A stretch of DNA of 64,000 nucleotides, taken from positions 32,001-96,000 of the forward strand of contig CAVXDX010000004.1 of assembly GCA_963760615.1 (NCBI GenBank), read 5' to 3'. The notes beneath the pieces are model-generated. The model did not search any database, was not told the DNA's origin, and saw only the letters and a program-made list of their open reading frames with translations. The position numbers and the translations under genes were made by a program. Below, one piece after another: positions 22,888-27,838 of the stretch; within the stretch, counting starts at the first letter, position 1, and every line of letters begins with the position of its first letter. Origin of the DNA: an uncultured Candidatus Micrarchaeota archaeon (lineage in GTDB: Archaea; Micrarchaeota; Micrarchaeia; Burarchaeales; Fermentimicrarchaeaceae).

Positions 22888-23267
22888 AGCATCCTCCTCG
22901 CATCCCGAATCATTTTTGCGTGGTCGAACCCGATTTCCGGGAGTTCATCCAGCCCGAACCACTTCACACTCTCCACCTCAACATCACCCTTCCCTTTTTT
23001 TGAGAGAGGCTTTGCAATAAATGCAACTGTGATGGTGCCTCTTGGGTCCCTCTTTGGGTCGGAGTAGACCCCGACAAATTTCACAAGCTTCACCTTTACC
23101 CCAGTCTCCTCAAGCGCCTCCCTCCTGCAGGCTTCCTCTACAGTCTCCCCCTCCTCAACAAACCCTCCGGGAACCGCCCAGAATCCCTTGTAGGGCTCAA
23201 ATTTTCTTTTGACCAGGAGAACTTTCCCCTTTTGGATTATCAGTGCGTCCACTGTTGTTGGCCTCAT
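22884..23267 (-). CDS. NUDIX hydrolase
   Basis: Nudix box GGFVEEGETVEEACRREALEETG; RDPRG. Confidence 0.93.
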   Translation of the reverse strand: MRPTTVDALIIQKGKVLLVKRKFEPYKGFWAVPGGFVEEGETVEEACRREALEETGVKVKLVKFVGVYSDPKRDPRGTITVAFIAKPLSKKGKGDVEVESVKWFGLDELPEIGFDHAKMIRDARRML

Positions 23268-25287
23268 TTTTACCCCATCCCTCCTTGCTCTTGCATTTCG
23301 GGTCTATGCACATCTGGAATACCTTCTTCCCGCTTCTCACAAATATCATCGGCAGCCCGCATACCTTGCAGGATTTCTTCAGCGGCTTTATGCTCCCGAA
23401 CTGCGGTATGGGGTAGCCCTGGGAGCATTTCGGGTAGTTGGAGCATCCCACAAACCTCTTTCTGGTTGCCTTTGAGACAATTATCTTCAAATTCCCGCCG
23501 CATTTTGGGCACTTCCCAATGAAGTTCTGCTCAAAAGTCGTTTTCTTCAAAGCATCCGCAAGCTCCCTGCCAATTTCCTTCTCCTTCTTCTTGAAATCTA
23601 TCAGAATCTCTGAGAGCGCAGCTTTCCCGCTTTCAATCACTTTACTCTCCTCTATTTTTCCCTCCTGTATCCACTCCATCTCTGTTTCCAGCTTCCTTGT
23701 CATCTCCTCATCCAGAATCTCAGGGGAGTGATGCTCCAGCGCCTCACACACGGCAAGCCCGAATTCAGTGACTCTTATACTCCTGTCCGCAATGTAACCC
23801 CTCTTGTACAACGTGTCAAGGATTGATGAGCGTGTTCCCTTCGTCCCCAACTCCTTCTCCTCAAGCGTTTGGACAATGGAGGCGGGCGTGTATCTCGCGG
23901 GAGGCTTTGTCTTGTCCTTTCTCATCTCCAGCTTGTCAACCTCGACATGCTCCTTCTCCTTGAAACCTGAAAGGTCCACCTCCTCGAATCTCACATAGGG
24001 TTTGTAGAAGTTTATCCAGCCTTCCTTGACCACCCTTGCCCCTTCCGCAGTATACCTCTGATCTCCAAGAAGAAGCTCAACATGCATCTTCTCCCTCACT
24101 GCATTCTCAGCAAAGCAGGAGAGGAATCTCTTTGCAATCAAATCATAAACTTTCAGCTCTGCTTCACTTGTGCCTTTCTTTGGCATGGCGCCTGTTGCAA
24201 ATATTGCCGGGTGCGCCGAGTCGCTCCTGCTTCCCTCCCTTGGGTAGAACCTATTCTTGGCAATAAGCTCCTTAGCGAATTTCTCGTAGTTCGGGTTCTT
24301 TGAGAGTATGTTGATTATCCTCGGCAAATTGAGCTTTGCAGGCAGCTTCTGGGATGCAGTGCGCGGGTAGGATATCAAACCCGCCTCATATAGAGCCTGT
24401 GCAATATCCTGAGTCTGCGAGGGCGATAAGCCAAACCATCTATATGCTTCAATTTGCAATGAGGTCAAATCGAAAGGAGGGTTGGGGGGATGCTCAAAAA
24501 TTTTCCTCTCCACCTTGTCAACAATCCCACTTCTTTCTGTTCTCTTCTTCGCTTCCTCCGCCTCCTTCTTCTCAAGGAATCTGCCTTTCTCATGGGTGAA
24601 CTTCACTCCCCTACAGTGCGCGAACAGCTGCCAGAATGGAACAGGTATAAAGGCAGCTATCTCCCTCTCCCTCGTGCTGAGTATCTTCAGGGTCGGACCC
24701 TGCACCCTACCTATGCTCATCACCCTATACTCACCGCTCTGCCTTACTGCACTCATCAACCCTCTCGACAGGTTTATGCCCCACATCCAGTCCAGTATGC
24801 TGCGCGCCTCCCCTGCATAGGCATTGTTATAATCCAGCTCCTCCCTCTTGTCGTATGCCTCGGCAAGCTCCTCCTCAGTGAGCGTTGAGAACCTCATCCT
24901 TTTGCCGGAAGTCTTGCCGCATGCAAACCTTATGATGTTGAAGCCAATTATACTGCCCTCTGTATCAAAATCGCATGAGTTCACGTACTCCTGAGTTCTC
25001 CCGGCAAGGAATTTTATAACATCGAGATATTTTTTCGTGTAATACGCGCCTTTCTCAACCTGGTATAAAGGAACCCACTCAACATCAAAGACTGGGTAAC
25101 CACCCCCGTTTTTCTCTCTCAGGCTGTAGATATGCCCAACAGCCGGAGCTACATACACCTGCTCCCCCTTCCTGTTAACTTCATAGTAAGCAACTCCGTT
25201 GAATGCCTTCCTCCTTGCATTGCTATCCAATGCCATTGCAACTCTCTGTGCAACGCGTGGTTTCTCGCATATAACAAGCACTGCCAT
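23197..25287 (-). CDS. topA: Type IA DNA topoisomerase (archaeal TopA/Topo III)
   Basis: TOPRIM VICEKP..DFDTEG, SIGRVQGPTL, catalytic LISYPRT, C-terminal zinc ribbons CPKC..CSNYPKC, CKVC..CIDPKC. Confidence 0.95.
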   Translation of the reverse strand: MAVLVICEKPRVAQRVAMALDSNARRKAFNGVAYYEVNRKGEQVYVAPAVGHIYSLREKNGGGYPVFDVEWVPLYQVEKGAYYTKKYLDVIKFLAGRTQEYVNSCDFDTEGSIIGFNIIRFACGKTSGKRMRFSTLTEEELAEAYDKREELDYNNAYAGEARSILDWMWGINLSRGLMSAVRQSGEYRVMSIGRVQGPTLKILSTREREIAAFIPVPFWQLFAHCRGVKFTHEKGRFLEKKEAEEAKKRTERSGIVDKVERKIFEHPPNPPFDLTSLQIEAYRWFGLSPSQTQDIAQALYEAGLISYPRTASQKLPAKLNLPRIINILSKNPNYEKFAKELIAKNRFYPREGSRSDSAHPAIFATGAMPKKGTSEAELKVYDLIAKRFLSCFAENAVREKMHVELLLGDQRYTAEGARVVKEGWINFYKPYVRFEEVDLSGFKEKEHVEVDKLEMRKDKTKPPARYTPASIVQTLEEKELGTKGTRSSILDTLYKRGYIADRSIRVTEFGLAVCEALEHHSPEILDEEMTRKLETEMEWIQEGKIEESKVIESGKAALSEILIDFKKKEKEIGRELADALKKTTFEQNFIGKCPKCGGNLKIIVSKATRKRFVGCSNYPKCSQGYPIPQFGSIKPLKKSCKVCGLPMIFVRSGKKVFQMCIDPKCKSKEGWGKNEANNSGRTDNPKGESSPGQKKI

Positions 25288-25296
25288 CCCAGCACC

Positions 25297-26178
25297 TCAA
25301 ACCTTATCAGTCTGCTCCCACATCTTTCTGAACTCTTCAATATACCTGTCAACAACCTTTAATTCATAGGTTCTCATCCCGAACTCAATGTTCCTCTCCA
25401 GGCTCGTTTTTGTTAAATTTGCTGAAGTGAACAGCACCTCAACATCGTCAACAATGAGGAACTTTGCATGCACTACGGAGTTCAAGCATATGGGTATGCC
25501 TGCCTTCTGCAGCCGTTCAACCATGGCTCCGTGGGATGCATCACCCTCAAGCGCAGGCCTGCAGACTATTCGTAGGTCAAGATTCTTCTTCTTAAGCGCC
25601 TCCAACCTTTCAAGTATAACGTCAACCCCCCATATCCACGGGGAGACAAGAGAAACGCCCACCTCCGCGAACTCCAGCATATCCATTATGTTCTTCTTTA
25701 TCTTCTCAGGCTCTAGGATTTCGCTCCTGCTCCTCCCAGAGGAATAGCATTCAGAAAGCCTCAAGACTCTCTTGTATCCTCCTTCAATAACTCTATCAAT
25801 TTTTTCAAGCGTCTGTTCTCTGTATCTGTCTCTTGCTTTGATGAAGGACTCGTATAATATTCTCTCATCAAGGCTCAGCCTGTCAAAGTTAAGGGAGTTG
25901 AGCCTCACAGCCTCAAGGTTCTTCTCATCCCTGAGCTTGTACACTTCATTGATTTTCTTCAAATCAGGCTCGGACTTCTCCTCAAGCATGTCTCTGACAT
26001 TGTTTGGCTCAATACTGGCTCCCTTTAGAAGTAACTTCTCAGCATCCTCAAGAACCTCACGAACTTCTTCCCTCAGATGTTCCTCCATCTCGCCGTAGAA
26101 GCTGTTGCTCATCTTCTCCAGATTCTTCGTTTCCTTCTCTCCGCTCCACAGTTTGAAAAGCTTCTCTTTTGCGTCCAT
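25297..26178 (-). CDS. Phospholipase D-superfamily (single HKD) protein with GINS A-domain-like helical N-terminus
   Basis: HAKFLIVD..TSANLT...NIEFG HKD motif (clear); N-terminal GINS-like pattern (tentative). Confidence 0.75.
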   Translation of the reverse strand: MDAKEKLFKLWSGEKETKNLEKMSNSFYGEMEEHLREEVREVLEDAEKLLLKGASIEPNNVRDMLEEKSEPDLKKINEVYKLRDEKNLEAVRLNSLNFDRLSLDERILYESFIKARDRYREQTLEKIDRVIEGGYKRVLRLSECYSSGRSRSEILEPEKIKKNIMDMLEFAEVGVSLVSPWIWGVDVILERLEALKKKNLDLRIVCRPALEGDASHGAMVERLQKAGIPICLNSVVHAKFLIVDDVEVLFTSANLTKTSLERNIEFGMRTYELKVVDRYIEEFRKMWEQTDKV

Positions 26179-26215
26179 TGATAACTATTAAAAAGGTTTA
26201 CCAATAAAAAATAGT

Positions 26216-27838
26216 ATGCAAACTTCTAATTCGCCTGCGGAAAAGGAAAGAAAATATATCATCGTAGTAGGTTCGTTGATGAGCGGTCTGGGGAAGGGGA
26301 TTGTCACAGCCTCTGTTGGCAAGGAGCTCCAGTCAAAGGGCTTCAATATTGTGCCTGTGAAGTTCGACGGCTATCTTAATGTGGACTGCGGAACAATGAA
26401 CCCCTACAGGCATGGTGAGGTATTCGTGCTTGACGATGGCGCGGAGTGCGACATGGATTTGGGCACTTATGAGAGATTCCTCAACATAGATTTGAAATGG
26501 GACAACAACATAACTGGAGGGAAAATCTTCAGGCTTATCATTGACAAGGAGAGGAAAGGAGGTTACCTGGGGTATGACGTGCAGATAGTGCCTCATCTGA
26601 CAAATGAAATTACTAAGTGGGTGAAGAAGGTAGGCAGCGATTTTGATGCGGATATTGTGCTCGTAGAAGTCGGTGGGACTGTTGGAGATTTGGAGAACTC
26701 GTACTTCATTGAAGCCATGAGGCAGCTTGCCCTTGAGAACAAGAACAGTGCAATGTTCATACAAGTTACTTACGTGCCTGTTCTTGAAACTGTGGGTGAG
26801 CAGAAGACAAAGCCGACCCAGCATGCGACAAGACTGCTTCAGAGCATGGGTGTCCAGCCGGATGTGATAATATGCAGAGGTGCGGAGAAGCTCTCTGCAA
26901 ATGCGAAGAAGAAGATAGCTCTGTTCTGCAATGTCCCTGAGGAGGCAGTCATAGACGACCCGGATAGCGAGACGATATACGAAGTTCCTCTCCTCTTTGA
27001 GAAGCAGAATCTTGTTGAATTGATAATGCAGAAGCTCTCTATAAAGCCGAGCAAGAAGGATTTGAAGAACTGGGAGGGGCTTGTTGAGAAGATAAAGAGC
27101 CCGAAGAAGGAAGTTACAATTGGGATAACCGGCAAGTACACCGCACTGAAGGACGCTTATGTAAGCATAAAGGAAGCCTTGACTCATGCAGGAGCGCATA
27201 ACGACTGTAGGGTAAATATAAAGTGGATTGAGACGACAGACATAGAGGATGGAAAGCAAACAGTGGATGTGCTGAAGGATTGTGATGGAATGATAGTGCC
27301 TGGCGGCTTCGGGGAGAGGGGCATGGAGGGTAAGATTCAGTGCATAAGGTATGCACGGGAAAAGGGAATGCCTTTCCTTGGGTTATGCTTGGGGATGCAG
27401 CTTGCGGTAGTTGAGTATGCAAGGAATGTCTGCGGTTTGGAAGGGGCGAATACAACTGAGAGCGACTCGAATACGAAACACCCAGTTGTAGACTTGCTGC
27501 CCGAGCAGAGGAGAATAGTCTACAAGGGGGCAACAATGCGTCTGGGAGGGCATGATGTTCAGATAAAGGATGGAACGCTTGCCTGCAAATTGTACGGAGG
27601 CACAAAGGCAAGGGAGCGCTTCAGGCACAGGTATGAGATAAACGAGAAGTACATCAAAATTCTTGAGGAGAAAGGACTGGTTTTCTCGGGCAAGGCCGTT
27701 GGGGAGGATGTGATGCAGATTGCTGAGCTGCCCAACCACAAATTCTTCCTTGGGACGCAGTTCCATCCAGAGTTCACATCAAGATTTGAAAGGCCGAACC
27801 CGCTCTTTGTGGGATTCCTGAAAGCATGCATGAAATAA
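26216..27838 (+). CDS. pyrG: CTP synthase
   Basis: SGLGKGI, GTMNPYRHGEVFV, KTKPTQH, GLCLGMQ, QFHPE. Confidence 0.96.
   Translation: MQTSNSPAEKERKYIIVVGSLMSGLGKGIVTASVGKELQSKGFNIVPVKFDGYLNVDCGTMNPYRHGEVFVLDDGAECDMDLGTYERFLNIDLKWDNNITGGKIFRLIIDKERKGGYLGYDVQIVPHLTNEITKWVKKVGSDFDADIVLVEVGGTVGDLENSYFIEAMRQLALENKNSAMFIQVTYVPVLETVGEQKTKPTQHATRLLQSMGVQPDVIICRGAEKLSANAKKKIALFCNVPEEAVIDDPDSETIYEVPLLFEKQNLVELIMQKLSIKPSKKDLKNWEGLVEKIKSPKKEVTIGITGKYTALKDAYVSIKEALTHAGAHNDCRVNIKWIETTDIEDGKQTVDVLKDCDGMIVPGGFGERGMEGKIQCIRYAREKGMPFLGLCLGMQLAVVEYARNVCGLEGANTTESDSNTKHPVVDLLPEQRRIVYKGATMRLGGHDVQIKDGTLACKLYGGTKARERFRHRYEINEKYIKILEEKGLVFSGKAVGEDVMQIAELPNHKFFLGTQFHPEFTSRFERPNPLFVGFLKACMK

Follow-up and report, generated by a model that had tools for sequence, protein, structure and literature searches.

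What is a GINS-like domain doing on the same polypeptide as a nuclease-like phospholipase D (PLD) domain, in a gene that directly precedes a topoisomerase gene? The question is raised by P0001, a gene for a 293-residue protein on the minus strand of a 64,000-nucleotide window (the whole stretch of contig CAVXDX010000004.1 analysed here) from an uncultured Candidatus Micrarchaeota archaeon. MCM becomes the active CMG (Cdc45-MCM-GINS) helicase by means of the scaffold GINS, which in some archaea also recruits the RecJ/Cdc45-type nuclease GAN. An earlier reading of the same DNA, the original prediction, had proposed a GINS A-domain fused to a PLD-family nuclease, and the motifs that it quoted (GEKETKNLEKMSNSFY, INEVYKLRDEK, LSLDERILYE, HAKFLIVD, SANLT and NIE) were all present in the translation of the open reading frame (ORF), which starts with ATG. 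Our analysis indicates that the gene very probably encodes an additional GINS paralog joined in one chain to an active PLD enzyme, with the following parts:

25297..26178, minus strand: the fusion gene P0001, encoding the 293-residue GINS-A-like plus PLD protein (ORF list, translation and homolog clusters).
25789..26178, minus strand: diverged GINS A-domain, residues ~1-130 (profile, hhalign, AlphaFold2 (AF2), VIA, Foldseek and Atlas comparisons).
25729..25788, minus strand: helical stalk, residues ~131-150 (DSSP of both structural models; the GINS alignments stop at about residues 120-132).
25300..25728, minus strand: single-HKD PLD (Nuc-like) domain, residues ~151-293 (Pfam PLDc_2, 1byr, 1bys_A, the Nuc alignment and invariant columns).

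The joining of the two domains is not an artifact of assembly. The same single ORF, 290-301 residues long, was recovered in 18 homologous protein clusters with 48-91% identity from JGI, ENA, Logan and NCBI assemblies as well as in the genomes of seven other species, and a chimeric assembly was therefore rejected. All homologs bearing a name come from Micrarchaeota. The GC content of the gene resembles that of the remainder of the window, and the source genome (1.14 Mb in 16 contigs) has a completeness of 91%.

To identify the N-terminal domain, we made a profile from this domain only (A2) and compared it exhaustively with 1.84 billion representative proteins. Beyond the family members, the search returned five proteins of 181-187 residues (library-wide E 1.3e-4 to 7.2e-4), each of which carries the Gins51_C B-domain (58-74 bits). 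Comparison of A2 by hhalign with an independent Gins51 alignment, which started from the source genome's own Gins51 (A3), gave a probability of 93.4% and an E value of 2.6e-7 over 109 columns (query 5-128, template 12-122). Weaker matches of the N-domain profile in 401 genomes of the phylum fell on canonical Gins51 at 21 of the 22 loci examined, with priS detectable within short flanks at 10 of these 21. The fusion proteins of a second family, f3, match the Gins51 hidden Markov model (HMM) at E ~1e-10, thus forming a bridge between the N-domains of the fusions and Gins51. Searching an HMM of the N-domain against PDB sequences yielded chance matches only (annexin and HA2) and no GINS.

Structure comparison pointed to the same family. 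The N-domain was folded alone from an alignment without any Gins51 sequence (A4), resulting in a model with a predicted local distance difference test (pLDDT) score of 90.3. In an exhaustive VIA-align comparison with 48,161 PDB chains, GINS chains occupied ranks 1-12 (Z 12.2 to 6.6), led by T. kodakarensis Gins51 (3anw_A; Z 12.2, root-mean-square deviation 3.4, 109 residues), and the first non-GINS fold appeared at rank 13 with Z 6.5. The top 20 Foldseek matches were GINS chains with probabilities of 0.66-1.0 but weak E values (0.08-1.2), and the nearest ESM Atlas cluster types were GINS in nine of nine cases (TM 0.56-0.68); a feature search of the ESM Atlas gave no usable match. The full-length AF2 model had a pLDDT of 76.8, and a fold search with it was dominated by the PLD domain, the N-terminal part matching only generic helical bundles. 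The domain is composed of a short helix (3-16), a loop, and helices 27-51, 58-92 and 103 onward. By DSSP the last of these spans 103-146 in both models, running beyond the GINS core as a stalk into the PLD domain. Profile similarity and predicted fold together support the original call: the N-terminus is a diverged GINS A-domain, placed first in the chain as is typical of Gins51.

The C-terminal half was recognized more directly. Pfam PLDc_2 matches residues 170-287 with 60.8 bits (cut-off 27), and among solved sequences the Nuc endonuclease comes closest (1byr, profile E 9.2e-8). The PLD part of the full-length model superposes on Nuc 1bys_A (Z 17.0, 134 residues) and on NucT (Z 16.8). Residue-by-residue alignment pairs H237, K239, D244, S252, N254 and E265 with the motif residues of Nuc, and none of the six varies among 15 family members, whose identity ranges down to 46%. 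The motif H237-A-K239-FLIV-D244-DVEVLF-T-S252-A-N254 fits the pattern HxK(x)4D(x)6(G/T)SxN, with a single motif in the PLD fold, as in nucleases of the Nuc/NucT/Zucchini type. The prediction of a Nuc-type single-HKD domain thus held for the C-terminus, and the domain is apparently active, judging from its conserved residues. Nuc forms its active site as a homodimer; with one HKD motif per chain, the fusion protein is expected, by analogy, to form a homodimer with one shared active site. The fusion is the sole PLDc_2 protein in the source genome. A candidate second PLD paralog on contig C14 was rejected, as the ORF there is NadC-like.

We then asked how this protein stands to the regular GINS of the organism. 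A separate canonical gins gene, whose existence the original prediction had left to be checked, is indeed present: a 183-residue Gins51 on contig C5 (C5:1616-2164; Sld5 24.6 bits, Gins51_C 61.1 bits), located in a PCNA-PriL-PriS-Gins51 cluster. Its B-domain (C5:1646-1777) is the sole Gins51_C in the source genome, and a Gins51_C gene is kept in all five of the other fusion-bearing genomes that were tested. Pfam found no Gins51_C match in the fusion protein, in which residues 150-293 are PLDc_2. Because it lacks the B-domain and the genome has a separate canonical gins gene, the fusion is a GINS-family paralog and not the Gins51 ortholog, and the idea that it is the only GINS of the genome was rejected. 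A Pfam Sld5 search of the contigs without a match on the own genome was a false negative, since the Gins51 ORF scores 24.6 bits by hmmscan, above the cut-off. On C5:1-5088 (L004) PCNA, PriL, PriS and Gins51 lie on one strand, followed by a 265-residue ORF that, on reading, resembles eIF2-alpha. In another genome (G103), a second Gins51_C match, additional to a normal Gins51, lies at C1:628059-628193 in an open frame of only 58 residues, perhaps a remnant or a mini-gene for the B-domain.

The fusion coexists not only with canonical Gins51 but also with MCM and with a GAN/Cdc45-type RecJ of 438 residues on contig C12 (DHH, DHH_CID and DHHA1). The presence of this DHH protein led us to reject the PLD domain as a substitute for a missing GAN/RecJ. 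Gins23 was not found in the source genome using NCBIfam NF053565, PSF2_N and the Gins51 HMM, which are weak tests on a genome that is 91% complete; these searches returned Gins51 only. The MCM gene (C8:128627-130828; L001 and L003), outside the window, lies in an open frame of 1200 residues in which the Pfam MCM match is split by ~1.5 kb, suggesting an intein, and a further MCM C-terminal fragment is located at a contig end (C9:110-346; L002).

Full-length fusions were found in 8 of the 401 sampled genomes of the phylum, distributed over three genera: all five genomes of the window's genus, counting the source genome; a sister genus; and, from another family in that order, the two genomes of one genus. 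Two very divergent relatives came from metagenomes. P0054 (282 residues) has the same two domains, and a homolog search seeded with it returned only P0054 itself; P0049 (147 residues), known from a single 1.3-kb contig, has the GINS-like domain without PLD. In a maximum-likelihood tree of A-domains, the fusion-family domains fall on one side of a branch with support of 99/97, opposite 31 Gins51 sequences; the fusion family has one origin. The long branch of P0049 arises from within the fusions, suggesting that its PLD domain was lost secondarily. The tree is unrooted and so leaves the order of the duplication and the Micrarchaeota Gins51 radiation unshown.

A PLD protein of the stand-alone kind only, 180-200 residues long, was found in 35 other genomes, out of 301 of the phylum. 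Loci L021-L033 hold such Nuc-like genes, most of them from one family. At seven of 12 loci the stand-alone PLD lies tail-to-tail with an ORF of 340-377 residues combining AAA_16 with a TrmB-type winged helix-turn-helix (wHTH), a neighbor that gave no useful lead (example locus: L021:1318-1905 and L021:1929-3059). At L025:516-2387 (genome G210) an NgoFVII-like PLDc_2 domain is N-terminally fused to a HerA/DUF87 ATPase in a protein of more than 624 residues that runs off the contig end.

The surroundings of the fusion gene in the window are the following:

25288..25296, minus strand: 9-bp spacer between the fusion stop codon and the topA start (sequence read).
23197..25287, minus strand: topA, archaeal type IA topoisomerase of 696 residues and putative operon partner (Pfam and NCBIfam; single copy; conserved adjacency at loci L011-L018, L013 and L034).
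26179..26215, no strand: AT-rich divergent intergenic region of 37 bp between the fusion gene and pyrG (sequence read).
26216-27838, plus strand: pyrG (CTP synthase), divergent neighbor of the fusion gene, also in families f1 and f3.

The fusion gene ends 9 bp before topA on the same strand, as had been predicted, and the downstream product is an archaeal TopA by NCBIfam (topA_arch, 733 bits) with Toprim, Topoisom_bac and zinc-ribbon domains and an ATG start. The spacer reads GGTGCTGGG and contains a Shine-Dalgarno-like GGTG. This TopA is the only type IA topoisomerase (Topoisom_bac) encoded in the source genome, and topA is present in 59 of 61 genomes of the class. On the other side, the fusion gene and the divergent pyrG begin only 37 AT-rich bp apart, suggesting back-to-back promoters and near-leaderless transcripts. 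The remaining neighbors are housekeeping genes as well (Nudix, NFACT, CDC48 and RtcA), with synteny kept between genera.

The proposed survey of synteny with topA gave a divided answer. The linkage is real: topA follows the fusion gene by 8-12 bp in all family-f1 genomes, overlaps it by 23 bp on the P0054 contig, and starts 36 bp past the PLD-less gene on the P0049 contig, and it is thus directly downstream in three of four lineages, the PLD-less one among them. It is not universal, as in family f3 topA is ~33 kb away from the fusion gene and has no GINS-like gene upstream. No GINS-like gene was found upstream of topA outside genera g1 and g2 in the other sampled genomes, and none of the Micrarchaeota topA loci checked has a stand-alone PLD beside it. 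Judging from this adjacency, the fusion gene is probably as a rule co-transcribed with topA in a conserved operon. The TopA of family f3 (L065:1048-3198 and L066:1048-3165) has a Lys/Ala/Pro-rich low-complexity C-terminal tail that is absent from the TopA of the window, and several other class members have TopA C-terminal extensions of 70-120 residues.

We propose that P0001 is a Gins51 paralog that has kept the A-domain, its beta-rich B-domain being replaced, by way of an extended helix, with a catalytically intact single-HKD PLD phosphodiesterase. The PLD domain would pair with that of a second copy for one active site, giving at least a dimer with two GINS A-domains. Because A-domains form the contacts of the GINS core, these could dock on Gins51 or on the GINS core of the CMG helicase, like Gins23 or a second Gins51. 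A DNA phosphodiesterase or nuclease would thereby be delivered to the replication fork, where it might work with the co-expressed TopA, for example in processing nicked or protein-linked DNA ends or at converging forks. Such tethering to the replisome through GINS/CMG seems to us conceivable, with a little less than an even chance of being right. A more specific version, which we consider rather unlikely, applies to Micrarchaeota without Gins23: the fusion would be the second type of GINS subunit, two PLD-joined copies and two Gins51 forming a 2:2 tetramer that recruits or services TopA at the fork. A 2:2 GINS of this kind would have a built-in phosphodiesterase that could, for instance, clear trapped TopA-DNA adducts or resolve converging forks.

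Several observations weigh against this explanation. Pfam and NCBIfam give no match on residues 1-150 (Pfam Sld5 none at E<=1), and within the source genome the HMM-versus-sequence matches between the N-domain and Gins51 were not significant in either direction (E 0.058 and 0.35). The A-domain is diverged, helices 2 and 3 carrying inserts of ~15 residues each, and its contacts with GINS may have been lost. Nor does the sequence determine whether the PLD domain acts on DNA, RNA, lipid or a phosphotyrosyl link. The distance of ~33 kb in family f3 indicates that the topA link is not obligatory. Being as rare as 8 of 401 sampled genomes, the fusion cannot be a core part of the replisome.

The explanation that survives best beside replisome tethering, and which we regard as possible if doubtful, takes its lead from topA. 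The A-domain would have been exapted as an oligomerization or TopA-adaptor module independent of CMG, and the PLD domain might process DNA ends generated or trapped by TopA, such as 5'-phosphotyrosyl adducts, in analogy with Tdp1. In its favor, the gene immediately precedes the sole topA in three divergent lineages, and so speaks the strong divergence of the A-domain from Gins51, and the helix extension past the GINS core (131-146) is kept in both P0049 and P0054. Without its PLD domain the GINS-like domain of P0049 still precedes topA; this, however, is the single short contig on a long branch described above. Family f3, on the other hand, keeps the fusion without topA adjacency, and the full Nuc-type HKD motif of the fusion differs from the arrangement in Tdp1, in which two HKN motifs lie in one chain. 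A complex prediction for the N-domain (A4) and TopA (A5) scored 0.00, which carries no weight for or against binding.

Much less probable is a role in defense against mobile genetic elements, in which the GINS-like domain would sense the replication machinery of an invader or act as a decoy for it. Defense systems often contain PLD nucleases, the distribution of the fusion is patchy and narrow, and partial PADLOC and NCBIfam matches to DrmC, DpdK and MkoB/C were obtained. These matches, however, cover the generic PLD core and lie far under the family cut-offs (NCBIfam DrmC 49 versus 133 bits, in the C-terminal 54 residues only), and the best PADLOC match is partial at 38.5 bits; a full-length match above the cut-off, as for DISARM DrmC and other defense PLD proteins, was not obtained. 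No partner defense genes lie nearby, and the syntenic housekeeping context argues against a defense role, as does a GC content like that of the remainder of the window. Least probable of all, and very improbable in our view, is a non-catalytic ligand- or DNA-binding PLD-fold module in a structural or regulatory protein in the style of TrmB and TrmBL2: the C-terminal domains of TrmBL2 (5bpd, Z 17.0) and TrmB (2f5t, Z 14.9) fit the fold as well as Nuc does, and P0054 has a weak Regulator_TrmB match, but the fusion protein has no wHTH domain and its HKD motif, aligned to that of Nuc and invariant across the family, is intact, making an enzyme the more likely assignment.

A GINS paralog in covalent union with an apparently active nuclease of an unrelated family, encoded in an operon with the only type IA topoisomerase, has two implications. 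Enzymes may be brought to the fork by the GINS A-domain as a portable tether, and the coupling of nucleases to GINS may have evolved more than once. No precedent for a GINS-PLD fusion was found in the open-access literature, including the two principal comparative studies of archaeal replication genes, in line with the original prediction, which knew of none, and the same sources contained no link between GINS and a type IA topoisomerase (Topo III). If the 2:2 tetramer were true, the replisome would have a hard-wired nuclease and a connection between GINS and topoisomerase IA, for which the literature searched offered no description. With 293 residues the protein is small, and the genome that encodes it also encodes its partners, which makes it practical to test the recruitment of phosphodiesterases and topoisomerase IA by GINS paralogs. 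The reach of the finding is limited by the rarity of the family and its uncultivated hosts; we consider its relevance for archaeal replication biology moderate to high.

Compared with archaeal Gins51/Gins15, as in T. kodakarensis (PDB 3ANW), the fusion has an N-terminal helical A-domain of the same topology in the same first position, and the two have motifs in common: L..W/L..E..s..L..l...FY at the start, R..K....A in helix 3 and L(T/S)..E..L(Y/F) in helix 4. The fusion differs in having PLD in place of the Gins51_C B-domain, in helices 2 and 3 that are ~15 residues longer and a last helix that is ~20 residues longer, and in being a second copy that adjoins topA and lies apart from the priS/PCNA genes. 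With Nuc of plasmid pKM101 (1BYR/1BYS) and NucT it shares the fold, one HKD motif per chain and the same H/K/D/S/N/E spacing; it differs from them in being cytoplasmic, with a 150-residue GINS-like N-terminal extension instead of a signal peptide, and the identity is ~21%. Tdp1 is likewise a PLD-superfamily enzyme tied to a topoisomerase, an analogy only, suggested by the topA operon; the fusion, unlike Tdp1, has a single Nuc-type HKD motif, and sequence comparison gave no match to Tdp1. Similar in concept is the GINS-GAN (RecJ/Cdc45) pair of Thermococcales, in which a nuclease is also physically coupled to a GINS subunit. In that pair the bond is non-covalent, the B-domain of Gins51 binding GAN, a DHH-family exonuclease, whereas in the fusion the link is covalent, the enzyme belongs to the unrelated PLD family, and the genome keeps its GAN-type RecJ as well. 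The fusion is thus a new domain architecture assembled from known parts.
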